Source: a virus
Virus record (IMG/VR): IMGVR_UViG_3300031251_000005
Location: 23,977-87,976 of that record
DNA length: 64,000 bases
Reading direction: 5' to 3' (one strand)
Shown: in pieces, positions 437 through 42,346 of the stretch
Numbering within the stretch: position 1 is the first letter of the stretch
Layout: every line of letters begins with the position of its first letter
Notes under the pieces: model-generated
The model's input: the letters and a program-made list of their open reading frames with translations, nothing else
Databases searched by the model: none
Told to the model about the DNA's origin: nothing
Made by a program: the position numbers and the translations under genes

Positions 437-542
437 TTTTTTAAAGATTTGAATTTTTTGAAGATATATATTATTGTTGTAGTATTAGAATAGTATTGCA
501 TTATTCTAATCTTTTTAAATTAAATAGGAGTAAGAACATGAA
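437..542 (+). promoter_or_regulatory. Promoter-hairpin-RBS cassette, copy 1 (diverged 5' half)
   Basis: Core gtattagaatagtattgcattattctaatctttttaaattaaataggagta is identical in copies at 12671, 38759 and 40281; ends in AGGAG and ATG 538. Confidence 0.85.
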
Positions 543-1347
543 GAAAGAAGTAAATCCAACAGAGTTTAATGAAATATTGGCTGTGTTAACGAAACACTGC
601 CACGTATATTTAGAGATTGGCTCAAGGTACTTTGGGTACAATCACGATCTGTCGGACTATGATTTCATGACTTCCCAGAATGGGATAAAATGTGGTTTAG
701 TAACCACGTTTACGAGCATTAAAGACTTGTCGGGGGGGGCAGAGTATTCTAGTGATCAGTCCCTTCAGGGGACTTTGTATGAAATTGTTGCCACCGATGG
801 CAGAAAGATTCAAATCTTGGCATTTGATAGGGATGAAGACTTGCATACCCAAGTCCGTAGGAACCGAGAGTTAAAGGGGTTTCTCTTAAACAATGAGTTT
901 CTCTTACCTTATATAGCTAATCAAAAAAGGATGTTTAATTCGGAAAAAGGAAATGGATCAATATTTTTCAACGAAATACTGGAGTGGATACAGTTAGAAC
1001 CCATGGACGGATGGCAATTTACTGTATGGTGTAATAACTATTACTCCATACAAGAGGCAAAAGGTAGAAAATGGGTGACTCGAATGATGTTACCTATATT
1101 TTCTATGGCCTCTGCCCAATCATCTAAACCAAAGGTAAGAGTATCATCTATTGGTTTTGATGAGCGACTAATAATCAATGACCAACCAACCACTATCCAT
1201 GGTTCTGGGGTAGCTTATCATTGGGTAAAAAACCATCTGCTAGTAAAAGTAATTCTGAATGAGCGTTCTAAAACCTTTCTAGTTGATATTGAAAACAATA
1301 TCAAATTTGATGCAGATTTTCACCACACAGAGTTGATAGTTGAATAA
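538..1347 (+). CDS. Putative nucleotidyltransferase (Pol-beta superfamily) fused to a duplicated C-terminal domain
   Basis: IGSRYFGYNHDLSDYDF fits the hGS...DxD NTase motif; start moved from TTG 496 to ATG 538 after AGGAG. Confidence 0.6.
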   Translation: MKKEVNPTEFNEILAVLTKHCHVYLEIGSRYFGYNHDLSDYDFMTSQNGIKCGLVTTFTSIKDLSGGAEYSSDQSLQGTLYEIVATDGRKIQILAFDRDEDLHTQVRRNRELKGFLLNNEFLLPYIANQKRMFNSEKGNGSIFFNEILEWIQLEPMDGWQFTVWCNNYYSIQEAKGRKWVTRMMLPIFSMASAQSSKPKVRVSSIGFDERLIINDQPTTIHGSGVAYHWVKNHLLVKVILNERSKTFLVDIENNIKFDADFHHTELIVE

Positions 1348-1354
1348 ATAGTAG

Positions 1355-1386
1355 GTAGATGGATACGCATATGCGTATCCATCTAC
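1355..1386. terminator. Perfect 32-bp palindrome, copy of 389-420
   Basis: Same palindrome and same downstream tatttattatcttttatttttt tail. Confidence 0.75.
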
Positions 1387-1420
1387 TATTTATTATCTTT
1401 TATTTTTTCAAATTATTTTA

Positions 1421-1432
1421 ATACATATATTA
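1421..1432 (+). promoter_or_regulatory. Putative phage early promoter motif ATACATATATTA
   Basis: The exact 12-mer recurs intergenically upstream of + strand genes at 34965, 42419, 53045 and 56828; resembles the phiKZ early consensus TATATTAC. Confidence 0.65.
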
Positions 1433-1510
1433 TTTACTAGCTATTCCCTTTGATCCATTAATTAACTAAGATACAAGTCTTAGAAATAACCGTAACCTAA
1501 CCTTTCCAAA

Positions 1511-2623
1511 ATGAGTAATGATAATGTTTTAAATAATGCTAAACTAATTAATACCGATAAGATACTGGTCGGTGATAAATGTGCAGTATCTAATAACTAT
1601 GCTAATTCTTTATCAACAAAATTAAAAATAGTTAATTTATCATCCCATCATTTAGTTGTATATTTTCGAGATGGATGTATTGCTGAATTACCTCCTTTAG
1701 AGGGTGGTCCATATCCTGATACAGTAATCATTGGTCATGCTAAACAAAATTCTTTAGGTAGAATAAACGCTATAGCTGGCATGGAGTGTGAAAAAACAAA
1801 TACAATAAGAGTAGAGCTTGCTAAGAATAGAAATAAGCACCTTTACTATGAAGAAGTAATTGATGTTAATTCGATTATGAATAGTAGAAATGGGATATAT
1901 GTTACGACTGCTGATATTATTATTATAATGGCAGATAGGGTACAGAATATACCATTTCATCCATTTTGTACGCAGAGTATTCATAATTTATATCTTATTG
2001 CCACTGAGGGGTTTGATAGTACTACAGATATAAATGTTGGTATTAGATTAATTAATAATGATGGATTACAATCTAGAGTATATATTATCTTTCATGATAG
2101 ATTAATGGTGTTATGGCCTAAAAGATCTACCACATTAAAAGATGGCTTATATATAACTGGGTTAACACATTTACACACTGAGGTAAGTAATGGTATTAGA
2201 AAAGATGAATATTTTACAATAGAAGAAGCATTAGATGGTAAGTGCCCTGTTAAAGTTTATTCAAATATAGTAGCTGCTAGAGATGCTTTAAATGCATCTA
2301 GAGTAGAGGAAGCTAAAGAGGTAATATTATCAAGAGAACATGAAACTACAATAATAAACATGAAACGCCAAAAAGAAATATTGGAGAATGAAAATGTATT
2401 ACTAAAAGCACAGCAAGTTAAAGAAAAAGAATTAGCAGCAGAGAGTGCTGCAAAAAGGGAAGCTGAAATAACAGCTGAGAAACATAGAATAGAAAAGGAG
2501 CTACTAATGTTAAAAGAAGAGGCTGCATTAAAAGCATTAGAACAAAAGAAGTGGACTGAAGCTGCTAAATTAGTTGGTACTGTCTGTGCAGTAGGTTTAA
2601 CAATTTATAAAATACTAAAGTAA
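1511..2623 (+). CDS. Hypothetical protein, possibly phiKZ gp122-like; C-terminal coiled coil and hydrophobic tail
   Basis: 370 aa ORF directly upstream of the gp123-like gene; E/K/A-rich heptads then LVGTVCAVGLTIYKILK. Confidence 0.55.
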   Translation: MSNDNVLNNAKLINTDKILVGDKCAVSNNYANSLSTKLKIVNLSSHHLVVYFRDGCIAELPPLEGGPYPDTVIIGHAKQNSLGRINAIAGMECEKTNTIRVELAKNRNKHLYYEEVIDVNSIMNSRNGIYVTTADIIIIMADRVQNIPFHPFCTQSIHNLYLIATEGFDSTTDINVGIRLINNDGLQSRVYIIFHDRLMVLWPKRSTTLKDGLYITGLTHLHTEVSNGIRKDEYFTIEEALDGKCPVKVYSNIVAARDALNASRVEEAKEVILSREHETTIINMKRQKEILENENVLLKAQQVKEKELAAESAAKREAEITAEKHRIEKELLMLKEEAALKALEQKKWTEAAKLVGTVCAVGLTIYKILK

Positions 2624-2678
2624 CTAATGATATACCTATTTGGTAACCATTATTTTAGTAATAGGAGGTATTAGTATC

Positions 2679-4265
2679 ATGATTGATACAAAATTGTTAA
2701 GCCTAGTCAGTAGCAAAATGCCCCAAATCAATAAGAAAGCCATGGAAGGTATAGCCATGTCTCAATTATCTGAAGTAGAAGAATATATTCATAATACTTT
2801 CAGATGTGCTGCAGAGAGTTTTCCACCTGGTTTAAAATATATAGGTGGTAGAAGATGTACCCCTTTAGAACAATATAGAGAAATCATTAGGCCATTAAAA
2901 CCAAAGAAAGCTTTTGAGATGTTAAGGTCAGATGTATATTTGATGAAATATCTTTTTACTTTTAATGGGATTGAATTAAGACCTTTCTATATATTCTTAC
3001 CATTTGTTAGTGATGGTGGAATAATGTTTCTCAAAGGCACGCAATATAAGGTAACACCAGTCTTAGGTGGTAAGGTATTTAATATTGAGCACAATAATAT
3101 TTATATGCCTACCCCTAGAATGCGTATGGGGTTTAGTCAATATACAGTTAGTTGCATATTAAATGATAAGATAGTACATTCTAATTGTGTAGCTAGTTAT
3201 TTATACAATATGAATAAAGTTGATAGATCAGTTTTATATCCTACACTAATGCATTATATCTTAGCTAAGTATGGGTTACAAACCGCTTTATTAAAGTTAT
3301 TTAATGTGCATATTACCGTTGGTAAGTATGAGTTAGATAAATTATCTCAACAAGGCTATAAGGTTTATCGTAGTAGACAGATTCCATATAGAAAAGTAAT
3401 TTCTTATGAACCAAGTGAAGTAAGGATTGCTATTCCAGAAAATGAATATTATCCTCTATTGGATAATATCATTAGTACAGTTTTTTACATCATTGATAAT
3501 TGTACAGATGCAACTAATGAAATTGAGGAATTAGAAAATCCTAAATTATGGTTACGTCTTTTGGATAGATTTATCTTTAAAGATCAAGGTACGGAAAAGA
3601 AAAGATTTGAAAAAATGGAGGAACATTTACAGAATACAGAAAATACCTATGATCCAGTGACTCGTAGGACATTAATGTCTGATTCAATTTTATGTAATGA
3701 TATCTTTGAATTGTTTAGGTATATATGTTTAAACTATCAGGATATAGTAATTCATCATGATGTTGGCACAATGTATTATAAAGAATTAACTACTACTAAA
3801 CATCTATTGTTTAATGTAGTATATAATATATTTATAGCTATGTATGAATTACAGAAACTACCTGAGAATCTGTTAACTGTTGAAAAGATATCTAAAGTGT
3901 TAATAGATAATCTAAGAAAAGATAAAATCTTTTCCACATTAGGACATGGGGAATTAACATCAACTGGAATAGCTACTGATTGTAAATACTTTGGTGCTAC
4001 TGGTAATATGATTTCTCATAGTAAGGCTACAGCAGTAGCTGGTAGTAAAAGATCTAAAAAGACTACTAATGATCCTGGATTATTATTACATGAATCTCAA
4101 GTAGAGGTAGCAACTTATGCTTGGATTACTAACAGATGTCCACATGGAAGATCTAAGATTAACCCATTTATTAATTTTGGAGAGAAATTTCAGATATTAC
4201 CATCCCCACAATTGGAACATACACTAACTGGGCTTAGAGAGCTTTTAAGAAAGAATAAGCGTTAA
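2679..4265 (+). CDS. Non-virion RNA polymerase beta subunit, N-terminal part (phiKZ gp123-like)
   Basis: FPPGLKYIGGRRCTPLEQY...DVYLMKYLF...LPFV..GG...GTQY..TPVL matches recalled gp123 motifs; similar size; AGGAGG precedes ATG 2679. Confidence 0.85.
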   Translation: MIDTKLLSLVSSKMPQINKKAMEGIAMSQLSEVEEYIHNTFRCAAESFPPGLKYIGGRRCTPLEQYREIIRPLKPKKAFEMLRSDVYLMKYLFTFNGIELRPFYIFLPFVSDGGIMFLKGTQYKVTPVLGGKVFNIEHNNIYMPTPRMRMGFSQYTVSCILNDKIVHSNCVASYLYNMNKVDRSVLYPTLMHYILAKYGLQTALLKLFNVHITVGKYELDKLSQQGYKVYRSRQIPYRKVISYEPSEVRIAIPENEYYPLLDNIISTVFYIIDNCTDATNEIEELENPKLWLRLLDRFIFKDQGTEKKRFEKMEEHLQNTENTYDPVTRRTLMSDSILCNDIFELFRYICLNYQDIVIHHDVGTMYYKELTTTKHLLFNVVYNIFIAMYELQKLPENLLTVEKISKVLIDNLRKDKIFSTLGHGELTSTGIATDCKYFGATGNMISHSKATAVAGSKRSKKTTNDPGLLLHESQVEVATYAWITNRCPHGRSKINPFINFGEKFQILPSPQLEHTLTGLRELLRKNKR

Positions 4266-7848: not shown

Positions 7849-10005
7849 TTATATTAATTTAAGAAATGCGCCTGCTTCAATTCGATATTCATCGTTACAA
7901 ATAACACCACAACCTATATCTAAACCTATATTTAAAGATCTAGTAATAATATCCATATAAGTGTTAGTAATATCAATAGAGCTATTAACAATAACTGGTA
8001 TTCTAATATTACTCACTATACTAAGATTATCATTAACATCTAGACCGTGAGAAGTTTCTATTGGGGACAATACAGTGGCACCTTCCTTACTATTTACTAT
8101 ACTAAATTCCCAAGGAATAGGTTCTATGTCATTAGTAGGTGCGCCATTTACAAATTGTACCATATAACTACATAGAGTACGAAGAATACCCATCATTTCT
8201 ATATATGGACTTTGTAATGTGCTTGTATTAGGTGAAATACCAATAAACACTTTAGCTAAAGTAGTAGCTATAGATATAAATGTAGTATCAGAGAAATAAC
8301 TCACATCTACTTCTAATCTATGAAAGAAATCAGTATAAGTTGTTTCTTCTACAAAACTACAAGGTATATTTTGATAGAATAAATTAACTAAAGATTGTAA
8401 CTCTGATCTACCTATAGGATTTTGTTCTAATGTAGGTAATAATCTATGTTGTACTTTATTACTTACTATTTGATCTATATAAATATTAAATTGATCTAAA
8501 GTAATCATATCATGCGGATATGTTTGTGCGCTTAATAAATCTTGAAATCTATTCCATGTAACTAATGGATTAGTATTTAATATTGAACCAGATACAAACC
8601 TAGATTCAATTATAGCTAATATCTCTTGATCAGTTAACTGTGGATGTACCATTATATCCCTAACTACTGGTGTAGGAATATCTATTAGTTTATTACCAGT
8701 ATAAGCGGAAGCAGCATACATTAAGAATACAGCAGCATCAGCTGCAGATAAAGTTATATCAGGTATACCCTCAGATGGTAATTTCAATATATACTTATAT
8801 CTAATCTTATTTTGATTAGTACTGGCTAAATATAACCAATTGTGTATTTGTTCAGAAACCCGACTAACTAAAGCAATAGTAGTATTTTGTATTATGCTAC
8901 CTTCAATCACATTAGTTGGTATGTCAGTGGATGGTGTATGTAACAAAGCTTCTTCTAATTTTAAAACATCTATATCTATGTTTTGTGGATTTAAAGAAGC
9001 CTGTGATTCTAATTTATCTACTAAATCTGGTATAGTAAAGAATTTAGTAGTATCTGTTACTTGAGTAGGCGTATTATAAGGGTACCTATTTACTTTTACT
9101 TCATTACCTAAATTCTTATAATCTTTATTATCTAAAGTTTTTAATGATTGCCCAATGTCTTGCCTTATATCATATTTATATAATTGTAAGCCAAATGGAA
9201 AAGCAAAGTTATCATTAAGAAAATCTAATGTAGAAGATAAACCAGCATTAGCTACAATATACTCTATATTTCTATATAGAAAATAAGCTTGTTCATAAGG
9301 TATAACATTTTTATAAGAACCTAAATCAAAATAGTTAGATAAATAATTCCATAAATGAAATTCATGTACTTGTGGTGTTTTACAATTATTTAATCTAATA
9401 TTAATAATAACAGGTATTAAATTTTGATATAGTATACCTAAAAAAGCAGCTGTATATAAATTATCTGTAACAGCATATGCAACTACATCCCATCTAGTAG
9501 TATAATTAGTAATCCATTTTTGAATATCACTAATTAATCTAGTTTCACCTGCACCAATAAAAGAAGGATCATAATCTAGTAAGATATAGTTATCAGCATC
9601 TATTGCTGTTTGTATATCTACTGGAGATAATACACCACGAATTAACATATCCTGGTTTGGATATTGAGTTATTAAATTATTATAAGAAGTACCATATGTT
9701 AATAGATCAGTTAATGTAATAGGGTGTTGTATAATTATATCTGGTAAGAAGTTTATTAACTCATTAGTATCTAATGAGTAAACTTGTATATTAGGATCAT
9801 TTAAATATCCTGTAGTACCCACATATGGTAAGCCAGCTATATTCCTATAATATTTCCAGTCAGCAGGATTTATAGATAACTCATCTCCACCTGCTGCTAA
9901 ATATGAATTAATAGTGTTTATCGTTTGTGTAGATTTAATTACAAAACTCCTTACAAGTTTTATTATATCTGAAACGTAAGCGTAATATGTATCACTTATG
10001 AGCAT
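7849..10005 (-). CDS. Virion structural/baseplate protein (phiKZ gp128-like)
   Basis: 718 aa; WKYYRNIAG, VYSLDT, YPNQDMLIRGVL, FLYRNIEY; next to the portal gene. Confidence 0.65.
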   Translation of the reverse strand: MLISDTYYAYVSDIIKLVRSFVIKSTQTINTINSYLAAGGDELSINPADWKYYRNIAGLPYVGTTGYLNDPNIQVYSLDTNELINFLPDIIIQHPITLTDLLTYGTSYNNLITQYPNQDMLIRGVLSPVDIQTAIDADNYILLDYDPSFIGAGETRLISDIQKWITNYTTRWDVVAYAVTDNLYTAAFLGILYQNLIPVIINIRLNNCKTPQVHEFHLWNYLSNYFDLGSYKNVIPYEQAYFLYRNIEYIVANAGLSSTLDFLNDNFAFPFGLQLYKYDIRQDIGQSLKTLDNKDYKNLGNEVKVNRYPYNTPTQVTDTTKFFTIPDLVDKLESQASLNPQNIDIDVLKLEEALLHTPSTDIPTNVIEGSIIQNTTIALVSRVSEQIHNWLYLASTNQNKIRYKYILKLPSEGIPDITLSAADAAVFLMYAASAYTGNKLIDIPTPVVRDIMVHPQLTDQEILAIIESRFVSGSILNTNPLVTWNRFQDLLSAQTYPHDMITLDQFNIYIDQIVSNKVQHRLLPTLEQNPIGRSELQSLVNLFYQNIPCSFVEETTYTDFFHRLEVDVSYFSDTTFISIATTLAKVFIGISPNTSTLQSPYIEMMGILRTLCSYMVQFVNGAPTNDIEPIPWEFSIVNSKEGATVLSPIETSHGLDVNDNLSIVSNIRIPVIVNSSIDITNTYMDIITRSLNIGLDIGCGVICNDEYRIEAGAFLKLI

Positions 10006-12634: not shown

Positions 12635-12664
12635 ATATACTAGGTGCATTTGCACCTAGTATAT
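12635..12664. terminator. Hairpin terminator after portal
   Basis: atatactaggtgca-tt-tgcacctagtatat. Confidence 0.7.
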
Positions 12665-12670: not shown

Positions 12671-12774
12671 TTTTTTAAAGATTCTAATTTTTTGAATATA
12701 TATATAATAGAAATGGTATTAGAATAGTATTGCATTATTCTAATCTTTTTAAATTAAATAGGAGTATTAAAATG
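12671..12774 (+). promoter_or_regulatory. Promoter-hairpin-RBS cassette, copy 2
   Basis: ttttaaagatt...tttgaatatatatataatagaaatggtattagaatagtattgcattattctaatctttttaaattaaataggagta, then ATG 12772. Confidence 0.85.
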
Positions 12775-13441: not shown

Positions 13442-13487
13442 GATAATTCAGATAATTTAGATATACCTAAATAATAATTAGCATAGG

Positions 13488-33906: not shown

Positions 33907-35042
33907 TCAAATAACAAACATAGACTATACTAGGAGAGCATTATTAGCTCTCCTAGTATAGTATTACCACTTTTTCATTTTCAGCTCTCTATCACAATAT
34001 ATTACAGAATTTTTTATATTTAATTCTATCTCTCTATATATACTATTGTTTTCTCTTATATATTAACTATAATGTTTTACTATATATAGTTTTGTTATCT
34101 TACTATATATAAACTATTATTACTTACATATATAGTTCATTATAATAACATTTATTAATAAAGGAGATTATAGAGGACTTAAGTCCTCTATAATACTTAG
34201 TTATATTTATTTTAAAGGAGACTATATAATACATTAGTATTATATAGTACTATCTACTAGTAATGAACTATGTCATTACTAAAGGAGAGAGTAGAGGACT
34301 TAAGTCCTCTACTCTAGTATTATATCTTGTTTATATATAAACATATATTTAATTAATTAAAATAAGAACCCCCTGGAGGAGTGGGGGTTAGTTTGACATA
34401 AAATAATGGATAATAAATATTTTTTTATTTAAATATTGAATCTGGATTCAGACTGTACATTAAAGAATATCGGCCTTCGTGGGCCGATATATTCATTTGT
34501 AGAAAAAATCACTCCGTAATTTTTTGAAAAGGAATACCCAAACAAGTTGTGTATGCTTTTGGATTATTTTTTTTGGGGTGCCCTCCAAAAAAAATTTAAA
34601 TAAGGAGGTGGGGGTTCCCCCCACACCATTTTAATTACAAAAAATAAGAAACACAAGTATTTTTTTATTTAAATTGATTTTTTAACAGTTTACTAGTTAA
34701 AAAATTTATTAGTTTTTAATAGTAAAATTAAGAAAAAACTTATAAAAGAAAGAAAAACATAGAAGAAAATATCTCCACTAAATACGGTTAGGTAGTTAGT
34801 GGAGATATATTGAGAAACTAATTACTGGAAGTTAGATTGAATAGTTTTACTATGATTACACACAAAAACACAGATAAGAGAAAGATTTAATATCGCGCAT
34901 TTTTTTGGCGCGATTCTAATTGATTGGTAAATTTCCATTATATGCTTATATTGGAAATAAATGAATACATATATTATTTAAATGCTGAGAAAGACTGTGA
35001 TGCTAATTTAATTTAAATAGGAAAAAAGAAGGGAAATGTATA
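33907..35042. other. 1.1 kb gene-free structured region, candidate replication origin
   Basis: No ORF of 60 aa or more; about a dozen hairpins; repeated elements; pyrimidine-rich left part and purine-rich right part. Confidence 0.5.
34160..34315. repeat. Three AAAGGAGA+hairpin units; two share the palindrome tagaggacttaagtcctcta
   Basis: AAAGGAGA at 34160, 34214 and 34281; perfect 28-bp palindromes at 34167-34194 and 34288-34315; hairpin at 34221-34248. Confidence 0.9.
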
Positions 35043-35609
35043 ATGTCAATTTTAATAGATAGTCAAATAAAAGAATTGTGTATAATTAAGAATATGATAA
35101 CACCATTTATTGATCAACCTGTTAGAGAGGTAAATGGTAAGAAAGTATTGTCATATGGGTTGAGTTCAGCTGGTTATGATGTGCGTATTGGTGATGAGTT
35201 TAAGATATTTACTAATATTAATTCAACAGTAATTGATCCATTAAACTTTGATGAAAGGTGCTTACACAGTTTTAAAGGTGAAGTTTGTGTTATACCACCA
35301 CATAGTTATGTATTAGCTGTGACATTAGAGTACTTTCATATCCCTAGGGATATAATGGTGGTGTGTTTAGGAAAGAGTACATTGGCTAGAGCTGGGTTAA
35401 TAGTAAATGTTACACCTATTGAGCCTGAGTTTGAAGGTACTGTGGTTATAGAGATAGCTAATACAGCGCCATTACCTGCTATCATTAGGGCTAATGAAGG
35501 TGTTGCACAGTTTCTTTTCTTTAAAGCTACACAAGAGTGTGAGATGTCTTATTTAGATAAGAAAGGTAAGTACCAAGGTCAAATTGGTATGACTTATGCT
35601 AAAGGTTGA
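35043..35609 (+). CDS. dcd: dCTP deaminase
   Basis: [45 protein letters not shown]. Confidence 0.95.
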
Positions 35610-35799: not shown

Positions 35800-36255
35800 A
35801 TGAAACAAACAATAGAAGAAAGAAGAAAAGAGTGTGGTAATAAAATAAAGGAATTTAGATTAGAGAGGGGATATAATCAAGTTGACTTTGGTAAAGCTTT
35901 GGGTTATAGCAATGTCTATCTATCTGTAATAGAGAATGGGCAACGTAGATTACCTAGGGTTATCTGTGATAGAATAAAAATAACCTTTGGGTTAGACTTA
36001 TCTAATTACTTAGAGGAAATGGATAAAGATGCTAATTTAACCCCTATGGGTAAATTAATCTTTAAGATTATAGCTGATAAAAAATTAGATGAGGAAACAT
36101 TAGCTAAAGAGCTAAACACTCCATGTGCAGTAATAAGAGCTATATTGTACAATATCAATGAAAAAGATGTAGCTATTAAATTACAAAGAAAGTTTCCTGA
36201 ATACATAGAAGAGACTAAAGAATCTCTTAAGTATCTACAACCTAGTAAAGCATAG
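35800..36255 (+). CDS. XRE-family HTH DNA-binding protein, possibly with two HTH units
   Basis: GNKIKEFRLERGYNQVDFGKALGYSNVYLSVIENG; start set at ATG 35800. Confidence 0.85.
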   Translation: MKQTIEERRKECGNKIKEFRLERGYNQVDFGKALGYSNVYLSVIENGQRRLPRVICDRIKITFGLDLSNYLEEMDKDANLTPMGKLIFKIIADKKLDEETLAKELNTPCAVIRAILYNINEKDVAIKLQRKFPEYIEETKESLKYLQPSKA

Positions 36256-36344
36256 GGGTTTAAATGACAGTAACTATCTTTATTATCTTTAAAACTAAAC
36301 AAATTGGAAAATTAAATAACTGAAGTAGTTAACAACTAGTATTA

Positions 36345-36374
36345 ATAGAGAGTAGCCAATTGGCTACTCTCTAT
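36345..36374. terminator. Perfect 30-bp palindrome
   Basis: atagagagtagccaa|ttggctactctctat then a T-rich tail. Confidence 0.75.
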
Positions 36375-36441
36375 AGTTTATTCTCTTTTTATTTTTTATT
36401 AAGTATTTCAATAGTATGTTATTACTAATTGGATACCTATA

Positions 36442-37305
36442 ATGAAATCCTTTCTAAAAAAACATTTAATCTTATTTATTGTATTAGCTATTATATTAAT
36501 ATCATTTACAGCATGTACTCCCACTTTTACTGGTAAACCAGAACCAGTAACAGATGAAGACACTATCTTAGAGCAATCTATTGTTGATACCACTCAAGAT
36601 ATTATCAATAAATGTAATATTGCTAATACTACTATATGTAGAAATAAAATTATCTATTCTAAAATGATAGGAATAGATATTAAGTATTTTGAATTTCAAA
36701 CACAATTAGTAAACTCATACAGAGAACTTACTTTTGGCACAGCTATTACTACCATAGGTCTAAATGCAGCAGAGGTATATACAGGGTATCCTTTATTATC
36801 TGTTTTATCTACTGCTATAATAGGTAGTAAAGCTGCTTATGATAGTAATATATTAATGGATAAAGCTATTTCTGGTATACAAACAGAAATGATATCACAA
36901 AGAAATATAGTAAAGATTAGATTAATCCAAGGTATGCAACAAGACGTTAATACATATCCATTAGAATTAGCTTTAATAGATTTAACTGATTACTATAATG
37001 CTGGTACTTTAATAGCTGCTTACAATGGATTGTCTGAGTCTGCTAGTAATAAGTCTACTGAGGTAAATAAAAAACTCAGTCAAGTAATTACAGCTAAGTA
37101 TACTAATACTAAATCTAGTGATATAATTCATAACTATATATTAGATAAAGATAATAACCCTATTATTGCTAATATACATACTTTAGATAACTGGTTAAAG
37201 GGTAAAGGTATTCCTGAACATTCTTCTATGTTTATGAATGATAGTAATCCTGATATTGAATTAAAGAGACAAGAAGCTATCACTGAATTAAATATTAATA
37301 ACTGA
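36442..37305 (+). CDS. Lipoprotein
   Basis: MKSFLKK, hydrophobic stretch, FTAC lipobox; helical body. Confidence 0.7.
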   Translation: MKSFLKKHLILFIVLAIILISFTACTPTFTGKPEPVTDEDTILEQSIVDTTQDIINKCNIANTTICRNKIIYSKMIGIDIKYFEFQTQLVNSYRELTFGTAITTIGLNAAEVYTGYPLLSVLSTAIIGSKAAYDSNILMDKAISGIQTEMISQRNIVKIRLIQGMQQDVNTYPLELALIDLTDYYNAGTLIAAYNGLSESASNKSTEVNKKLSQVITAKYTNTKSSDIIHNYILDKDNNPIIANIHTLDNWLKGKGIPEHSSMFMNDSNPDIELKRQEAITELNINN

Positions 37306-37316
37306 GGTATTATATA

Positions 37317-37475
37317 ATGACTGAAATAGAAGTAAGAGAAGAAATAGAGGAAGATGTACCACCATCTAAACTCCATGAGAAATTATCTATCATAGAAGCT
37401 AGTGGTGGAACTCATGAAGTATCTTTACAAATCAATGGTAATTATACAATTACCGCTACTTATTCAATATCTTAA
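37317..37475 (+). CDS. Small hypothetical protein (52 aa, not in the ORF track)
   Basis: GAGGT RBS; MTEIEVREEIEEDVPPSKLHEK...TYSIS*; fills the gap in the operon. Confidence 0.45.
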   Translation: MTEIEVREEIEEDVPPSKLHEKLSIIEASGGTHEVSLQINGNYTITATYSIS

Positions 37476-37480
37476 TAATT

Positions 37481-37702
37481 ATGGAAAATAAAGGTCAATC
37501 AATAAAATATAGTTTTCTAGAATCATTTACTAATACTATACTTGGGTATATTATAGGGGTAATGGTACAAATGTGGATATTTCCTTTATATGGTGTTAAT
37601 ATATCAGTTTTTGATAATATGTTTATAGTAGCCGTGTTTACAACTATATCTTTTATTAGGACATATCTTTTACGTAGATTTTTTAATTTACTTTCAAAAT
37701 AA
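37481..37702 (+). CDS. Small two-TM membrane protein
   Basis: S.LES.TN..LG...Q..IFP.YG...FT.IS..R.Y..RRFFN, a pattern common in phage membrane proteins. Confidence 0.7.
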   Translation: MENKGQSIKYSFLESFTNTILGYIIGVMVQMWIFPLYGVNISVFDNMFIVAVFTTISFIRTYLLRRFFNLLSK

Positions 37703-37720
37703 CATTTCATAGGTAATTGC

Positions 37721-38572
37721 ATGCAACAATATTTAAATTTATTAGAAGACATTTTAACTAATGGAGAGATAGTTAGTAATAGAACTGGGATTAATACAAT
37801 TCGGGTTGAAGGAAGGATGTTAGAGTTTGATATGAATAAAGGGTTTCCTTTATTAACTATTAATAAAGTTTATTATAAAAAAGCTTTTGCAGAAATGTTG
37901 TGTTTTATGAAAGGCCCTACTGATGCAGCTAAACTACGATTAGCTGGTTGTAATTGGTGGGATAAGAATGCTAATGAAAATAAACAATGGTTAGCTAATC
38001 CTAATAGAAAGGGCATAGATGATCTAGGTAGAGTATATGGTGCACAATGGCGAGATTATAGAGCACCAGATGGTAGAATAATTGATCAATTAAAAATAGC
38101 AGTAGAGACTATTATTAAAGATCCTGATAGTAGACGAATTATTGTTGAAACATGGAACCCTGGTGAGTTAGATAGAATGGCACTACCACCTTGTCATAAA
38201 TCCTATCAATTTATTTGTAATAAATTAACCAATGAGTTATCTCTTATAGTAGATATTCGTTCATCAGATGTAATTTTAGGGCTATCTACTAACATAGCTA
38301 TGTATGCTCTATTACTTAAGATAGTTTGTTATGCAACTGCTTATAAATCAAAGAAATTAATATTTTCTTTAAAAGACACACATATTTATGAAAATCACTT
38401 AGAAGGAGTAAGAGAGTTATTAACTAGAACTCCAACCGAATTACCCAAACTACAAATTCATATGGGTCAAGAGTATCATGGAATGAAAGTAATAGATAAA
38501 ATAAAAACCACAGATATTAAGGTTTTAGATTATAAAGCACAAAAACATTTAAATTTTGAAATGGCTGTCTAA
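37721..38572 (+). CDS. thyA: Thymidylate synthase
   Basis: NRTG, FPLLT, DLGRVYGAQWR, SRRII, MALPPCH, RSSD, HIYENH, C-terminal MAV. Confidence 0.95.
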   Translation: MQQYLNLLEDILTNGEIVSNRTGINTIRVEGRMLEFDMNKGFPLLTINKVYYKKAFAEMLCFMKGPTDAAKLRLAGCNWWDKNANENKQWLANPNRKGIDDLGRVYGAQWRDYRAPDGRIIDQLKIAVETIIKDPDSRRIIVETWNPGELDRMALPPCHKSYQFICNKLTNELSLIVDIRSSDVILGLSTNIAMYALLLKIVCYATAYKSKKLIFSLKDTHIYENHLEGVRELLTRTPTELPKLQIHMGQEYHGMKVIDKIKTTDIKVLDYKAQKHLNFEMAV

Positions 38573-38589
38573 ATATAGAGTTATATTTT

Positions 38590-38700
38590 ATGAGAGAATT
38601 TTTATATAAACTATTTATTTGGTTCATAGTTATCAATGTAGCTTTAGGTGAACTAGTATATGAGAGATATCAAGATATAATAAAGTTTATTAAAAAATAA
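38590..38700 (+). CDS. Possible 36-aa membrane peptide
   Basis: MREFLYKLFIWFIVINVALGELVYERYQDIIKFIKK*; weak RBS. Confidence 0.35.
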   Translation: MREFLYKLFIWFIVINVALGELVYERYQDIIKFIKK

Positions 38701-38711
38701 TAATATATGAG

Positions 38712-38746
38712 ATTGATACTACTAGCATTGCGCTAGTAGTATCAAT
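38712..38746. terminator. Hairpin terminator
   Basis: attgatactactagc-attgc-gctagtagtatcaat. Confidence 0.7.
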
Positions 38747-38758
38747 ATTACCCATATT

Positions 38759-38865
38759 TTTAAAGATTAGAATTATTTGAATATATATATAATAGAAATG
38801 GTATTAGAATAGTATTGCATTATTCTAATCTTTTTAAATTAAATAGGAGTAAGAACATGAATTGG
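38759..38865 (+). promoter_or_regulatory. Promoter-hairpin-RBS cassette, copy 3
   Basis: 107 bp, one mismatch to 40281-40387. Confidence 0.9.
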
Positions 38866-39600
38866 TTTACAAAAGCTTTTGTTAGCACACTTTCAATAGA
38901 AAGCAAAGCTAAAAAATGTTCACAGATGGATTGCTGTGAACACGTTGAGGCTGATAACTCACTGTTGTCGGTAATTAGCCGTGAGAATGACTCGTTCGGC
39001 AGTGAGGCATATGGCATGTGTGATGCATGCAATGAATGGAGTATGGAAGAAGAAGGCAAGGAAGAAGTAGTCTGCCATGACTGCAAAGAAACAAAGGAAA
39101 AGAAGGACACATATGAATGGAAGTGGTATGATTTTTATGCACCACAAGGAGATGAACCTCTATGTATTTGCGATGCCTGTCGTAAATTACCTAAGCATAT
39201 TGCTCGGGTAAAAAAGGATAGACAGGAAAGGGATGAAGAGTTGTATGGGAACCAAGACTGTGATAGTGATCAGGATGACTACTATAGCTATTATTTAACT
39301 GGTGAGGAGAAACAGGAATTGGGTAATAATTCCACTGTTTTGGAATTGCAAGAGGCAGATGTAGAGTTTTACACTTTCAGGATGAAAGAACTTGTAAGTA
39401 AATTCGAAAAAGACTTTATCCCAAAAGAAAATAGTCTTCCAGAATATGTCGAACTCTATAATCTTGTATTGGAATGGTTGTCACAACAGGTCCATCCATA
39501 CTGGAAGTTAGGTGAATTTGAAGCCGTTTTCAGTAGATTTCCAAAGGCATGGTTGGCTGATATGGCGCCACTAATCACTGGTAAAACAAAACCATTTTAA
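38857..39600 (+). CDS. Cys-rich, probable Zn-binding accessory protein
   Basis: DCCEH, CDAC, CHDC and CICDAC; ATG 38857 after the cassette RBS. Confidence 0.7.
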   Translation: MNWFTKAFVSTLSIESKAKKCSQMDCCEHVEADNSLLSVISRENDSFGSEAYGMCDACNEWSMEEEGKEEVVCHDCKETKEKKDTYEWKWYDFYAPQGDEPLCICDACRKLPKHIARVKKDRQERDEELYGNQDCDSDQDDYYSYYLTGEEKQELGNNSTVLELQEADVEFYTFRMKELVSKFEKDFIPKENSLPEYVELYNLVLEWLSQQVHPYWKLGEFEAVFSRFPKAWLADMAPLITGKTKPF

Positions 39601-39613
39601 TTAACCACTATCG

Positions 39614-39645
39614 TTATTCTAGTGAGCATATGCTCACTAGAATAA
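39614..39645. terminator. Perfect 32-bp palindrome
   Basis: ttattctagtgagcat|atgctcactagaataa. Confidence 0.75.
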
Positions 39646-39671
39646 ATCTATTATTTTTTGGGAGTATTAGA

Positions 39672-40067
39672 ATGTACAATACATTTACCAATGAAGAAAT
39701 TATTAAATCTTTACTATTGAAACAAACATTGGAGAATGATGGTAGGGAATTTAAATTTATACGAGCACTTCCCGATAAATGCAACCCATGGCTATATGTA
39801 GAATATTACGAGGTAGATAAATTCCATTATCATCGTTTTATTTATAATGAAGAGATCGGCCTTAAACCAGTAAGTGCATTACAAAGCCTTATATTCCTAC
39901 CTACTGGTACCACTGCGTATACGGATGAAGATGTTACTGTAAATGGTCATGGTTGGGAATCTACTAATGATCGTGCTTCTCTTAGTATTAAATCTACGTT
40001 TGGTTATCGGCATATTTGCCGACTTACTTTTAACAAAAATACAGGAGAATTTACTCAAATAGTTTAA
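39672..40067 (+). CDS. Hypothetical protein
   Basis: GGAG RBS before ATG 39672; the track start at 39630 lies inside the palindrome. Confidence 0.65.
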   Translation: MYNTFTNEEIIKSLLLKQTLENDGREFKFIRALPDKCNPWLYVEYYEVDKFHYHRFIYNEEIGLKPVSALQSLIFLPTGTTAYTDEDVTVNGHGWESTNDRASLSIKSTFGYRHICRLTFNKNTGEFTQIV

Positions 40068-40088
40068 TTAGATAAATACATCCATTTG

Positions 40089-40116
40089 TACTACTAAAGC
40101 AATTGCTTTAGTAGTA
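40089..40116. terminator. Perfect 28-bp palindrome with a poly-T tail
   Basis: tactactaaagcaa|ttgctttagtagta then a long T-run. Confidence 0.8.
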
Positions 40117-40154
40117 TTTTTTTTTTTCATTAAATTTTCATATAGATATCATCT

Positions 40155-40232
40155 ATGTGAATTATTGTATATAACTTGGTGAGCGCGTTAGCCTTCTGGC
40201 TGACTGTACTGGTTCAATTCCAGTTTTACATT
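40155..40232 (+). tRNA. Degenerate tRNA-like element, possibly derived from tRNA-Arg(UCU)
   Basis: Acceptor atgtgaa/tttacat; canonical T-arm actgg-ttcaatt-ccagt; anticodon arm ttagc-cttctg-gctga with a 6-nt loop; aberrant D-arm; no CCA. Confidence 0.55.
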
Positions 40233-40280
40233 AATTTAATTTTATACTAATTGTTTTAGGAGTAATTAGAAATGTCAGAA

Positions 40281-40387
40281 TTTAAAGATTAGAATTATTT
40301 TAATATATATATAATAGAAATGGTATTAGAATAGTATTGCATTATTCTAATCTTTTTAAATTAAATAGGAGTAAGAACATGAATTGG
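40281..40387 (+). promoter_or_regulatory. Promoter-hairpin-RBS cassette, copy 4
   Basis: Near-identical to 38759-38865, including the first three codons ATG AAT TGG. Confidence 0.9.
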
Positions 40388-40395
40388 GAGAAACC

Positions 40396-40878
40396 ATGAG
40401 CCTACCACTTAGAATTAAAATAGAAGTCATTATCTTAAAAGGTAATAAAGTGTGTGTAACAAAAACTGTACTAGAAGATGGATACACATTCTATGGATTT
40501 CCTGGTGGTGGAGTTGAAGATAAGGATTCCTATGAGGAAACTGCAAAGAAAGAATGCCTAGAAGAAGTCGGCATAGCGATTAAAGATGTCCACTACTTAG
40601 GATTAAATGTAATCCTTGCACCAACCTTTGTTAAAGAAGGTCGTGCTGAAAAATTTAGTGGCATTAATAAGTACACCTATGTTGCTACTTATGATAAAAT
40701 GGATAAGTCTTTACATGGCTCAGAAGGTGATGCATTAACCTATCAATGGCTAACTATTGATGAAGCTATACATAAGGTTTCTGATAATAGATTAAAGGCT
40801 GTTGTTGATAATAGAATTGAAGCCCTGAATAAAATTAAAGGATTAATTACTCATAACACACTTAAAGATTTAAAATAG
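40396..40878 (+). CDS. Nudix hydrolase
   Basis: Nudix box GGGVEDKDSYEETAKKECLEEVG. Confidence 0.9.
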   Translation: MSLPLRIKIEVIILKGNKVCVTKTVLEDGYTFYGFPGGGVEDKDSYEETAKKECLEEVGIAIKDVHYLGLNVILAPTFVKEGRAEKFSGINKYTYVATYDKMDKSLHGSEGDALTYQWLTIDEAIHKVSDNRLKAVVDNRIEALNKIKGLITHNTLKDLK

Positions 40879-41074
40879 AACAAACTAAAAATAAACCTTT
40901 AATCGGGTTTATTTTTTTTTCAGTATTTCTTAATAACTATTAATAAAGGGGATTTAAAGATGTTAGATCTTAGATACAGATTTACGAAAAGAAAAAGAAT
41001 TAATCATGTTGGTTTACCTCTGTATGTAAAAGGTAGAACTAAATATATGAAATTACCAGTGGATAGTTTCCAAG

Positions 41075-41374
41075 ATGGCTAAAGGTGATCTCGATAACAC
41101 ACCTCTTGCATTTCTGGAACAGGCTTTTGAATCTTGTGTCATCTACAAGACTAAAAAACCATCTGTTACCGAAGGTAAAGGTGGAAAAGATGGTAAAGTT
41201 ATTCCTGGTGATTCAAGACCAGATGTTGAAGGTAGTCAACGTCTACGCAAATTCATTACTCGTCTTGGTTTCCTAAGACTGGAAATTGATACTGCAATCA
41301 ATGATATGAAAATTGATTTGTTAGATGGTAATCACAATGCACTGATGGATATTTATCAGCTAGCATTACGCTAG
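41075..41374 (+). CDS. Hypothetical protein or gene fragment
   Basis: 99 aa; no clear RBS; its stop codon lies inside a half-copy of the 38712 hairpin. Confidence 0.4.
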   Translation: MAKGDLDNTPLAFLEQAFESCVIYKTKKPSVTEGKGGKDGKVIPGDSRPDVEGSQRLRKFITRLGFLRLEIDTAINDMKIDLLDGNHNALMDIYQLALR

Positions 41375-41488
41375 TAGTATCAATATTACCCCTATTTTTA
41401 TAAATTCGAATTTTTTGAATATATATATTGTCTTGGTGATATGATAGATTAATCTATCTTTAATTATAATTCTTTAGGAGTAGAGAAA

Positions 41489-42022
41489 ATGAAAGGTTTA
41501 ACACTGAAAGAAGAAATGGCTATGCTGGAAGGATATAATCAAGTTGACTTTGAAGAAATGTCAGAAACCGTGGTAATACAACAAGCGTTAGAATTATTTA
41601 ATGCGCACGGTGTGCAAATGGATTGGCCATCCGATGCTGATGGAATAGCAATGTTGGCAGAGAGTGCCAATTATGCAGCTAAAACTATAGATGAAGAATT
41701 CTATAGCTTAAAACCACTGTTAATAGATATAGCAGTTGGTAGAGGTGTGGAAAACCATGGATGGAATGGTGATGTATTTTTCATGGAAGGTGAAGAAACA
41801 GGGGTTATGTGTTTCCACGACCCATATGGGTCCATTAAAAGTACTGGATCATGGGATAAAACATGGTCTGGCGTTGAAAGACAATGGAGTGCTTTTAACA
41901 TTCTTAATAATAAGAGTGTTAGAAGATTATACAAAGAGTCTACTAGTCACACTGGAAGACTCTTTGGTTTAAAAGATTCAGTTGTGAGACGAATCGAAAA
42001 TCGGCTTTTAAAAGCCGCATAA
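41489..42022 (+). CDS. Hypothetical accessory protein
   Basis: AGGAG RBS; upstream variant promoter ttttttgaatatatatattg. Confidence 0.75.
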   Translation: MKGLTLKEEMAMLEGYNQVDFEEMSETVVIQQALELFNAHGVQMDWPSDADGIAMLAESANYAAKTIDEEFYSLKPLLIDIAVGRGVENHGWNGDVFFMEGEETGVMCFHDPYGSIKSTGSWDKTWSGVERQWSAFNILNNKSVRRLYKESTSHTGRLFGLKDSVVRRIENRLLKAA

Positions 42023-42046
42023 AAAAAAACAAATAGGAGTAAGAAC

Positions 42047-42346
42047 ATGAATAAGAAATTTGCGTTCATCAGTAGGCACCAACCTACTGATGAACAAAGG
42101 GTGATCTCTGCCAACGAAGGCATTGATCTGGTGGCAGTTGGGGATGCCGATGGCTTTTCTCTTACCCAAGGATGGGTAGATGATAAAGGTGCATTTGAAG
42201 GGGTGATAGTAGTTCACCCTGGAGCAGCACTATCACTAGCGCCCTATTTCGTTGTTGGAGTTTTCGAAAACTCCAACCGGGCACCAGAGGGGCAAGCCCC
42301 CACCTTCATCGCAAAGGAATTGCACTTGTATGATTTAAGGGGGTAA
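42047..42346 (+). CDS. Small alpha/beta protein with Csx15/16/20-like motifs (function speculative)
   Basis: FAFISRHQPTDEQ...GVIVVHPGAALSL; preceded by the 21-bp cassette 3' end aaataggagtaagaacatgaa. Confidence 0.5.
   Translation: MNKKFAFISRHQPTDEQRVISANEGIDLVAVGDADGFSLTQGWVDDKGAFEGVIVVHPGAALSLAPYFVVGVFENSNRAPEGQAPTFIAKELHLYDLRG

Follow-up and report, generated by a model that had tools for sequence, protein, structure and literature searches.

In T4-type phages, the PeSLs (promoter-early stem-loops) described in excerpts of two papers are composed of a terminator stem-loop, an AT-rich stretch, an early promoter, an SD and an ATG. Many conserved copies occur per genome, mostly in the variable regions between core blocks, where they frame orphan genes, and degraded 'half' copies lie close to indels. 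Homologous recombination between copies via the phage's own system was the mechanism proposed (PMC2839356, PMC4122927). For early promoters, the relevant part of PMC5312081 gives the AR9 consensus as AAATATATATTAT-(6N)-G+1 and states that transcription in phiKZ and phiR1-37 likewise starts 6 nt downstream of their elements. Here we describe a repeat that we think is rather probably a PeSL-like composite early-expression cassette of a phiKZ-like phage, the copies of which recombine among themselves; our literature search found no paper describing such a cassette in jumbo phages.

The source is an 88-kb fragment (31% complete) of an uncultured phiKZ-like soil giant phage, and the window, that is, the whole 64-kb stretch analysed, corresponds to contig positions 23977-87976. 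phiKZ-type markers include PhiKZ_MCP PF25620 (E 2e-130), phiKZ_IP and divDNAB, and the gene at 2640-4265 matches PHIKZ123 of PDB 7ogp (E 6e-37); the fragment, at 31% completeness, yielded no chimallin gene. A repeat search of the window returned four copies of a 107-nt element, 88-99% identical to copy 3 as reference (copy 1, 440-546, 88%; copy 2, 12674-12780, 91%; copy 4, 40281-40387, 99%). The 48-nt core running from the hairpin to AGGAG was invariant in 4/4 window copies, and none of 100 dinucleotide shuffles contained a match to it. Over the whole contig (87,976 bp), the 29-nt hairpin core was found five times, on the forward strand every time, against 0 in the reversed control. The fifth full copy, at window position -526 (about 1 kb before the window), precedes a paralog of the gene at 538-1347. 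The original prediction had placed an element of about 100 bp at 437, 12671, 38759 and 40281 and its last 21 bp at 42031; all these sites proved real, with starts trivially (3 nt) off at two copies and the last one recovered as 19-22 nt at 42031-42052, while a second partial copy at 41360-41428 had been overlooked. The features are as follows.

389-420, +, terminator T2, a perfect 32-nt palindrome after the upstream paralog gene and directly before copy 1; identical copy at 1355-1386
440-546, +, cassette copy 1, subfamily A: promoter core 462-474, predicted +1 481, hairpin 484-510, AGGAG 526-530, ATG 538
538-1347, +, cargo gene 1, 269 aa, no family; 67-70% aa identity to the cassette-driven paralog just before the window
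1355-1386, +, second copy of T2, closing unit 1; followed by a non-cassette early promoter (core 1421-1433, predicted +1 1440)
12635-12664, +, terminator hairpin 3' of the portal-like gene (10077-12620), directly before copy 2
12674-12780, +, cassette copy 2, subfamily B promoter, SD spacer variant TATTAAA; predicted +1 12715, ATG 12772
12772-13110, +, cargo gene 2, 112 aa, no family
13120-13149, +, hairpin after cargo gene 2, closing unit 2
13173-13441, no strand assigned, scars beside unit 2: a 55-aa minus-strand remnant of an SLT paralog joined to an 88-nt copy of 3251-3338
38715-38743, +, terminator hairpin T1 before copy 3; also before the copy outside the window, its 3' half before partial copy 5
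38759-38865, +, cassette copy 3, subfamily B: core 38781-38793, predicted +1 G38800, hairpin 38803-38829, ATG 38857
38857-39600, +, cargo gene 3, 247 aa; phrog_8344 match over the N-terminal 129 aa
39614-39645, +, palindromic terminator closing cargo gene 3
40121-40280, +, non-cassette early promoter: predicted +1 40159, 113-nt leader, SD, ATG 40273; frame cut after 6 codons by copy 4
40281-40387, +, cassette copy 4, lacking the upstream T-run and hairpin and including the first 9 nt of gene 3 (ATGAATTGG)
40379-40399, +, mini-ORF of 6 codons arising from the carried-over start, with a stop that shares ATGA with the NUDIX start
40396-40878, +, cargo gene 4, NUDIX hydrolase, 160 aa (PF00293, E 1.4e-13)
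41360-41428, +, partial copy 5, 91% to copy 3: promoter half of the cassette, preceded by the 3' half of T1
42031-42052, +, partial copy 6: last 19-22 nt only (AAATAGGAGTAAGAACATGAAT), after an unlike terminator (42002-42017) and before a 99-aa gene (42047-42346)

The proposed hairpin-cassette-ORF-hairpin layout holds for copies 1, 2 and 3 and also for the copy outside the window; copy 4 has no hairpin directly upstream. Unit 2 does stand alone beside the portal-like gene, with the terminator at 12635-12664 between them. T1 and the cassette together form a repeat of 151 nt that is 91% alike. Since the preceding gene's terminator lies upstream of the cassette and every cargo gene is closed by one of its own, these would be self-contained, probably early and well-translated single-gene units. 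Beyond the core, partial copy 5 continues into a different leader (hairpin GATAGATTAATCTATC, AGGAG, ATG 41489) with a predicted +1 at 41438 and a PWM score of 27.8, and the ORF at 41075-41374 terminates within its T1 remnant. The identity of partial copy 6 is owed in part to the common extended SD of this phage, TAAATAGGAG.

The AT-rich box of the cassette resembles the published phiKZ/AR9-type early promoter of the virion RNA polymerase, and, counted by eye, 11-12 of the 13 core positions agreed with the AR9 consensus. Exact matches to ATAyATATATwAy in the 88-kb contig numbered nine; all lay between genes on the + strand, each with a gene downstream. A PWM scan returned 12 sites, only on the + strand, 11 of which exceeded the maximum of 20 shuffles; the site with its +1 at 40159 was outside the training set and scored 29.0 against a shuffle maximum of 16.7. 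By the same measure the subfamily A copies scored low (15.0 for one, below 13.7 for the other). At the predicted +1, 7 nt past the core, subfamily B has G, whereas subfamily A has A. In two relatives, G001 and G002, G occupied this position in 17/26 and 28/30 of the non-coding motif matches, respectively, versus 2/16 and 4/17 of the coding ones. No virion-RNAP gene was identified in the contig fragment. The expected early expression signal is present as a motif: its likeness points to a promoter of the early (virion RNAP) type, from which the start site, early timing and polymerase of the cassette can be provisionally assigned. The leader measures 57 nt from the predicted +1 and ends in AGGAG-7 nt-ATG. 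Its hairpin starts at the predicted +1, with a folding energy of -7.7 kcal/mol (39 nt; z -3.6, equalled by 1/200 shuffles), and the SD is unpaired in subfamily B. A 5'-terminal hairpin appeared in 41% of 41 unique leaders at predicted early starts vs 30% of genomic controls, and the MFE of these leaders did not differ from that of the controls (P 0.57), indicating that predicted early starts do not generally have such a hairpin. The leader families gave no common consensus fold. Protection of the 5' end is our guess at the role of the cassette hairpin.

Evidence for recombination includes the paralog pair, in which the cassette was identical at 104/108 positions and the terminator at 56/56, compared with 73% for the 59 fourfold sites (binomial P 2e-10 for the cassette and 2e-8 for the terminator); the identical 56 nt include the T-rich tail of T2 (C1:24363-24418 vs 25329-25384). 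Modules occur in varied combinations among the cassette copies. Copy 4 brings 9 nt of gene 3 with it and truncates the start of another gene, and the scars beside unit 2 comprise the SLT remnant (49% to residues 160-214 of the SLT gene) and the 88-nt fragment (100% to 3251-3338, inside the PHIKZ123-like RNAP subunit gene). Genes for a UvsX-like recombinase and an SbcC-like nuclease are located nearby. Logan contigs ended at the cassette repeats, with no joint in them. The partial copies, the carried-over 9 nt and the truncated gene start suggest recombination between copies. Both relatives have promoter-leader-SD families of their own, with at least 6 copies in G001 and at least 11 in G002, each behind a gene-specific terminator; the G002 family is strongly mosaic, 134/231 pairs of informative sites failing the four-gamete test across 11 copies.

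Portal identity to the relatives was 35-48% aa (closest 48%), and 52/91 ORFs had a collinear homolog in G001, a genome 75% complete. Homologs in G001 were found for 0/5 cassette-driven genes and 0/2 genes behind partial copies (hypergeometric P 0.002, with the genes not being independent). The units lie in variable islands, whose flanking core genes are conserved and collinear. For example, the socket 3' of the capsid gene holds two units here, one unrelated unit in G002 and none in G001. At such portal divergence, the absence of the cargo from relatives shows island turnover and is not proof of the cassette as its cause. The cargo genes are mutually unrelated, as anticipated, except for the one paralog pair. 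Cargo gene 1 had no homolog in G001 or in cultured phages, and cargo gene 3 was 53% identical to a protein of Ralstonia phage RSL2. The cargo did prove accessory insofar as it lacks homologs in the closest relative, but the trait is not peculiar to the cassette: non-cassette early-promoter genes had a homolog in another of these genomes in 1/4, 2/11 and 3/15 cases vs 0/5, 0/5 and 2/11 for the cassette-driven ones.

Our preferred reading is as follows. From 5' to 3', the cassette consists of an AT/T-rich upstream stretch, a virion-RNAP-type core ATAyATATATwAT with a putative start 7 nt on, and a leader whose first ~31 nt may form an 11-13-bp hairpin at the 5' end, followed by unpaired A/U-rich sequence, AGGAG and, after a spacer of 7 nt, ATG. 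Recombination between copies would hold the cassette and terminators near-identical while the cargo diverges, and the short homologies of the cassette may serve as crossover points at which accessory genes are duplicated, inserted, truncated or exchanged. The affected regions would be the three variable islands that follow the capsid gene, the portal gene and thyA. We infer that the cargo moved by recombination at the cassette rather than elsewhere, in which case the cassette would be 'mobile' and a 'gene capture system'. The original prediction is supported in part: the reused promoter-hairpin-RBS unit, the early motif and the PeSL analogy stand, and the islands and scars fit it.

Other explanations concern how the cassette is transcribed. 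Subfamily B ends in TATAAT, and T4-type PeSLs use sigma-70-like early promoters as far as the excerpts on them go, so a host sigma-70 promoter like that of true PeSLs could take the place of a phage-polymerase promoter. However, no acceptable -35 hexamer was present at 16-18 nt, the cassette was not flagged in a sigma-70 scan that gave no excess of such sites (35 found vs 39.1 expected), the 13-nt conserved core with its fixed 6N-G, at the same spacing in three phages, fits the AR9 virion-RNAP consensus, and the phage encodes a PHIKZ123-like RNAP subunit. We therefore regard a sigma-70 promoter as very improbable. The hairpin and U-run could also act as a promoter-proximal attenuator at which most transcripts stop at ~35-40 nt, giving a multi-copy short RNA with conditional read-through to the cargo. 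CUUUUUAAAUU after the hairpin would suit this, as would the premature 5'UTR termination that yields abundant short RNAs in phiKZ (PMC10914365) and 201phi2-1 (PMC11512511), according to passages of these papers. Yet the stem has one G-C pair and the folding energy given above, the terminator scan did not flag it, the real terminators of this phage are 13-15-bp palindromes with 4-6 G-C pairs, and the counterpart hairpin in G001 has no T-run after it; attenuation thus seems improbable.

A different question is why the copies are alike. They could be a fixed regulatory leader and no vehicle of gene flux, kept alike by selection because one trans-acting factor (an RNA-binding protein, small RNA or polymerase) must recognise promoter and leader, with cargo turnover due to ordinary illegitimate recombination unrelated to the cassette. 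The transcribed leader is indeed the most uniform part among the five copies (variable columns 4/60 vs 11/42 in the promoter part), a pattern that selection on RNA function would also yield. G001 and G002 show the same order of early promoter, hairpin at +1 and SD in a different sequence, the motif CTTTTAA aligned across 11/11 leaders compared, accessory cargo typifies all early-promoter genes here, and the unit 2 scars contain no cassette sequence. What selection leaves unexplained is the 56/56 terminator and the loop and spacer identity beside 27% fourfold divergence. Moreover, the partial copies break at three different points inside the element, copy 4 reaches into the coding sequence of another gene, and the variants in G002 are shuffled, including hybrids that weaken the leader hairpin (GTCATT...AATAGC). 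On balance a fixed leader appears rather unlikely. Short, near-identical and dispersed copies would also be expected of an autonomous mobile element (MITE-like or homing) inserting via its own enzyme, but terminal inverted repeats and target-site duplications are missing, the left ends differ between copies, all copies share one orientation and a fixed register with the start codon, and no transposase, integrase or homing endonuclease was present among the subset of ORF proteins scanned. Such an element is scarcely credible here.

The recombining composite cassette that we favour is closest to the PeSLs (Arbiol et al., 2010; Comeau et al., 2014), the analogue correctly named at the outset: judged by the excerpts of these reports, composite build, multiple copies, island location, half copies and proposed recombination are common to both. 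The PeSL promoter is of sigma-70 type, whereas that of the cassette is virion-RNAP type by motif, and the cassette has an extra, strictly conserved hairpin downstream of the promoter, at the predicted 5' end of the transcript. PeSLs belong to T4-type phages and the cassette to a phiKZ-like lineage; mini-circles and indels between near-identical phages were demonstrated for PeSLs, while the cassette is known from sequence. The virion-RNAP early promoters of AR9, phiKZ and 201phi2-1 likewise have, in the portions of the papers that deal with them, an extended AT-rich element, a start 6-7 nt downstream and small genes of unknown function behind them (PMC5312081, PMC8244752, PMC10914365, PMC11512511). 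The motif in those portions spans ~13-35 nt, and the cassette goes beyond it as a ~100-nt unit with a conserved leader, 88-100% identical copies and mosaic or partial copies. Morons, discussed for phiKZ in part of PMC10914365, are also autonomous promoter-gene-terminator modules between other genes, as is the unit beside the portal gene here. In contrast to morons, each of which has its own signals, the cassette units share one homogenised regulatory frame.

A repeat search of the window revealed a 107-nt element in four copies, which were 88-99% identical to the third copy, taken as reference. A 48-nt core running from the hairpin through AGGAG was identical in all four (0 occurrences in 100 shuffles), and the 29-nt hairpin core appeared five times in the whole contig (87,976 bp; CheckV completeness 31%; G+C content 30%), on the + strand every time. 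The original prediction of a repeated element in front of several genes was therefore confirmed, and it was enlarged by a fifth full copy lying 1 kb upstream of the window start, where it precedes a paralog of the gene at 538-1347, and by a partial copy at 41360-41428. The count now stands at five full and two partial copies in the 88-kb contig. These cassettes and the genes behind them (the cargo) are listed below in window coordinates, C1 marking coordinates of the whole IMG/VR contig, of which the window covers 23977-87976.

Cassette copies and their cargo genes
C1:23505-24356 and 538-1347, + strand: paralogous cargo genes (283 aa and 269 aa) behind the outside-window copy and copy 1 (440-546); no family
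12674-12780, + strand: copy 2, before cargo gene 2, a 112-aa orphan
38759-38865, + strand: copy 3, before cargo gene 3 (starts 38857; 247 aa, the first 129 aa matching phrog_8344)
40281-40387, + strand: copy 4, before cargo gene 4, a NUDIX hydrolase
41360-41428, + strand: partial copy 5, the 3' half of an upstream terminator and the promoter half of the cassette, then a different leader; before a 177-aa orphan
42031-42052, + strand: partial copy 6 (RBS block), the last 19-22 nt of the cassette only; before a 99-aa orphan

All five full copies ended in a Shine-Dalgarno (SD) sequence and ATG, and a terminator hairpin stood immediately 5' of four of them, copy 4 being the one without. One such terminator, T1, recurred together with the cassette as a single 151-nt unit. 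Copies 1, 2 and 3 and the outside-window copy each had a preceding terminator hairpin and a cargo gene closed by another. The terminators of this phage were long, nearly loop-less perfect palindromes with T-runs (389-420, 1355-1386, 39614-39645, 40088-40117 and 44332-44363), and a terminator scan of 38400-44600 found 10 against 2.1 expected. Neither terminal inverted repeats nor target-site duplications, the marks of a MITE or transposon, were seen in an alignment of the copies with their flanks. Rfam 15 gave no match at gathering score across the whole window and no tRNA genes were found in it; ARAGORN did not call the tRNA-like GGTTCAATTCC near 40210. Many unrelated genes (e.g., 4395, 35043, 35743, 42467, 53104 and 56901) were preceded by an extended ribosome-site motif, (A/T)TAAATAGGA(G/A), so the identity of the RBS block at 42031 is partly generic.

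The TATATATA box of the cassette was part of a 13-nt core, ATAyATATATwAy. Its nine exact matches in the contig all lay between genes on the + strand, each with a gene downstream, and among 18 further matches with one mismatch seven were intergenic. Six bases and then mostly G followed the core; the predicted +1 base was G in three of the five full copies and A in both copies of promoter subfamily A (copy 1 and the outside-window copy). According to PMC5312081, AR9 early promoters, the targets of the injected virion RNA polymerase, have the consensus AAATATATATTAT-(6N)-G+1, and in phiKZ and phiR1-37 transcription starts 6 nt downstream of AT-rich elements. By motif, the cassette core agreed with this virion-RNAP consensus, being AT-rich with a start about 6 nt downstream. 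In two related phages, a looser motif had G at +1 in 17 of 26 non-coding versus 2 of 16 coding matches (G001) and in 28 of 30 versus 4 of 17 (G002); in the present contig it was 8 of 21 versus 6 of 37. A weight matrix was built from 49 unique sites, with the best score of 20 shuffles (16.7) as background. Every one of the 12 sites that it returned in the contig was on the + strand, 11 scored above 16.7, and a site outside the training set was recovered (+1 at 40159); one subfamily-A copy scored 15.0 and the other fell below the listing threshold. A sigma-70 consensus scan did not list the cassette and showed no excess of sites (35 versus 39.1 expected). From the core match, the G at +1, the matrix scan and the lack of a sigma-70 signal, we read the cassette promoter as a member of the early (virion-RNAP) promoter class of this phage. 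About 13 promoters of this class were predicted in 88 kb, five with the full cassette and one with its promoter half. No virion-RNAP genes were located in the 31%-complete fragment. The only gene-free stretch longer than 1 kb (33907-35042) carried repeated AAAGGAG-hairpin units at 34154-34348, and its right end held a predicted early promoter with +1 at 34984, which drives the dCTP-deaminase-like gene at 35043-35609.

The predicted transcript with +1 at G38800 begins with a hairpin at its very 5' end. In the minimum-energy fold of the leader (-7.7 to -8.0 kcal/mol), nucleotides 1-2 and 4-14 were paired with 20-32, followed by an unpaired CUUUUUAAAUUAAAU, AGGAG, seven bases and the AUG at +58. 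Over the five copies, the leader was variable in 4 of 60 columns versus 11 of 42 in the upstream part. Its hairpin had one G-C pair and was not flagged in the terminator scan; the real terminators of the phage are 13-15-bp palindromes. Such a 5'-terminal hairpin with an open A/U-rich ribosome site would suit a stable, well-translated message. All multi-copy leader families had a 5' hairpin, and no common fold was found across the families. As a general rule for early transcripts the 5' hairpin was rejected, occurring in 41% of 41 unique predicted leaders versus 30% of genomic controls in three phages. A CTTTTAA motif (here 38829-38837) aligned in 11 of 11 leaders compared from three phages, in differing structural contexts: 3' of the hairpin here and in a hairpin loop in G002. 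A role as a second promoter shared with other genes was not supported, as 5 of about 86 other genes carried the motif versus about 2.4 expected by our estimate.

Immediately before the first two units lies the gene for a major capsid protein of phiKZ type (PF25620, E 2e-130), and the contig further encodes a phiKZ internal head protein and a divergent DnaB. Matches to the portal-like protein came from 282 records of cultured phages, none of them reaching 60% identity; the 25 matches listed were at 27-29% and mostly belonged to jumbo phages of the phiKZ kind. One RNAP subunit homolog was found, the gene at 2640-4265, which matched PHIKZ123 (PDB 7ogp, E 6e-37), a structure we take to be that of the non-virion RNA polymerase of phiKZ. 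The 31%-complete fragment yielded no chimallin gene, and the gene at 7849-10005 was discarded as a candidate, its matches being annotated as virion structural proteins. The phage, which is uncultured, is likely nucleus-forming. The window also encodes a UvsX-like recombinase and an SbcC-like nuclease. In the tail region, a 159-nt direct repeat (72%) at 19225-19956 links the 3' parts of two adjacent genes.

The closest genome was G001 (IMGVR_UViG_3300021142_000002; 220 kb), with a portal 48% identical in amino acids, and G002 (181 kb) had a portal at 35%. A portal-based search for loci yielded none with the single protein and 13 with an alignment, the best at 48%; an exact copy of the portal protein was present on a 151,831-bp contig. 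Megablast of 36000-44000 gave no match among cultured phages. The 29-nt core had no match in viral or metagenome contigs, a search that possibly excluded records of its own genome, and the cores of the G001 and G002 cassettes, searched in viral contigs, matched the same populations only. Fifty-two of 91 ORFs had a G001 homolog in conserved order. The 39 ORFs without one included all five cassette-driven genes, both genes behind the partial copies and all ten ORFs of the 6-kb stretch 38572-44553. That 7 of 7 cassette-associated genes lacked a G001 homolog had a hypergeometric P of 0.002, to be read knowing that these genes lie in clusters and include a paralog pair. The five full and two partial copies were confined to three islands interrupting collinearity with G001, at these sites:

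Contents of the three sites in the compared phages
After the capsid gene: two units here; a single cassette unit, unrelated to these, in G002; some 440 bp in G001
After the portal gene: one unit and scars here; 6.8 kb including the G001 cassette in G001
After thyA: 6 kb here; about 2 kb including the G001 cassette in G001

Across the three phages, sockets held 0, 1 or 2 units. Such presence and absence of whole units is the pattern that the original prediction proposed to look for, seen here among distant relatives (portal at most 48%) that are too divergent for breakpoints to be placed. Both relatives had cassettes of their own. In G001 there were at least six copies, which fell into two subfamilies with 97-100% likeness inside each. 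The G001 unit opened with a palindromic terminator specific to its gene, continued with ATTCAAA...CATGTATATATTAT-6N-G and, from +1 on, a hairpin, and closed with a further small hairpin, AGGAGA and ATG. G002 had at least 11 copies of about 105 nt, 85-99% alike. The sequence of the cassette differed between the phages and its layout was kept, which means either that the copies evolve in concert inside each genome or that they co-evolve with a factor specific to the phage.

Several signs pointed to recombination. Nucleotide identity between the paralogous cargo genes was 77% overall and 73% over 59 fourfold-degenerate sites; the cassettes in front of them were identical at 104 of 108 positions and the terminators behind them at 56 of 56 (binomial P 2e-10 and 2e-8, respectively, versus the fourfold rate). 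T1 preceded both the outside-window copy and copy 3, and half of it preceded partial copy 5. Module combinations varied, with promoter subfamily A used twice and B three times, two SD spacers and the lone RBS block at 42031. Copy 4 was 99% identical to copy 3 and had carried over the first 9 nt of the copy-3 gene, and the mini-ORF of 6 codons that results has its stop overlapping the start of the NUDIX gene; its left edge truncates, after six codons, a reading frame with its own early promoter, leader and SD. In G002, 134 of 231 pairs of informative sites among the eleven copies showed all four combinations, and some copies were hybrids joining two arms of different hairpin variants. Beside unit 2, at 13173-13487, the minus strand carried what is left of an SLT paralog, 55 aa with 49% identity to residues 160-214 of the neighbouring SLT transglycosylase gene (13525-14178). 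Directly adjoining it, 88 nt from inside the PHIKZ123-like RNAP subunit gene (3251-3338) recurred without a mismatch, and the exact identity suggests a recent event of illegitimate recombination.

In three DNA runs from rhizosphere metagenomes, one of them probably the source, contigs ended at the cassette repeats and gave no joint between copies. One contig linked 39298 to 38771 via 34 other letters at single-copy depth (12.9 in run X1 and 2.8 in run X3); rather than a circle, it is probably another locus, a paralog or cassette copy in the 69% of the genome outside this fragment. Another contig of 234 nt (depth 11.6), 87% identical to 42031-42259 at the start of the 99-aa gene, began exactly at the RBS block and is probably a paralog or cassette copy elsewhere in the genome. 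There was a depth excess over the cassette bin, which is not convertible to copy number. A 30,654-bp record (IMGVR_UViG_3300021127_000026) corresponded to G001:159421-190073 with both ends inside cassette copies; it was set aside as a variant of G001, being an assembly break at two cassette copies instead. Cassette repeats break assemblies in this way and can be mistaken for the terminal repeats of a complete small genome.

A function could be assigned to the NUDIX cargo alone. The paralogous cargo proteins had no Pfam, PHROG or NCBIfam match. They shared a GS-x10-DxD pattern (EIGSRYFGYNHDLSDYDF), presumably the mark of a nucleotidyltransferase fold, and ESM Atlas gave weak nucleotidyltransferase look-alikes (0.89-0.91) with few shared features. 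The N-terminal domain of cargo gene 3 (38857-39243) shared 53% identity with a hypothetical Ralstonia phage RSL2 protein and matched 42 cultured jumbo-phage records in all, with no homolog in G001. Such a patchy spread, in a phage whose portal is only about 28% identical to those of cultured phages, fits an exchanged accessory gene.

Our results partly support the cassette as a PeSL-like early-expression element on a promoter of the phage's own polymerase, a case that draws on sequence patterns from a single 88-kb fragment and from two relatives at a distance. Of the original prediction, the early-type expression cassette resembling the promoter-early stem-loop (PeSL) cassettes of T4-type phages held up through motif, layout and scars, and gene capture is plausible. 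The copies very probably recombine among themselves, and it is plausible that they cause gene gain and loss; genes behind the other early promoters were as rarely conserved as the cassette cargo, which counts against a special role of the cassette. Early genes of phiKZ-like phages are mostly orphans, and host-takeover and anti-defence functions are expected among them. We put forward, as an unlikely idea, that the phiKZ-like clade, probably nucleus-forming, may run an integrase-free socket system in which an early-expression frame doubles as portable homology arms. The virion-polymerase promoter, the 5'-hairpin leader and the palindromic terminators would form this frame and be kept identical within a genome by concerted evolution. 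A gene dropped between the arms would be expressed in the first minutes of infection and could be swapped between co-infecting relatives with common arms. The strictly conserved leader hairpin would then be recognised specifically by an RNA-binding or recombination protein of the phage rather than act as a mere stabiliser. If early genes do sit in a reusable recombining frame, this would explain accessory-gene turnover without integrases. It would also allow early accessory genes of uncultured jumbo phages to be found by a simple sequence signature and provide a natural insertion site and expression frame for engineering such phages, and would extend the PeSL principle from the host-polymerase promoters of T4-type phages to a lineage transcribing with its own polymerases.

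In a literature search that covered main texts and few subscription journals, we found no paper linking PeSLs with jumbo phages beyond a reference list, and none describing such cassettes in jumbo phages. The words 'cassette' and 'hyperplastic' were absent from a 2026 jumbo-phage review. As described in two papers (PMC4122927; PMC2839356), a PeSL has a terminator stem-loop just 5' of a sigma-70-like early promoter (-35/-10, 17-nt spacer), then SD and ATG. PeSLs cluster in hyperplastic regions beside orphan genes that differ among close relatives, degraded half-copies occur, and mini-circles were demonstrated by inverse PCR (PMC4122927; PMC2839356). The present cassette was similar to PeSLs in its layout, distribution and scars: it is a composite of terminator, early promoter, SD and start codon, with many conserved copies in variable islands between conserved core blocks. 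However, it had a virion-RNAP-type core in place of the sigma-70-like promoter and a conserved hairpin downstream of the promoter, and it belongs to a phiKZ-like and not a T4-type lineage. The cassette, known here from its sequence alone, may thus be described as PeSL-like but not as a strict member of the PeSL family.
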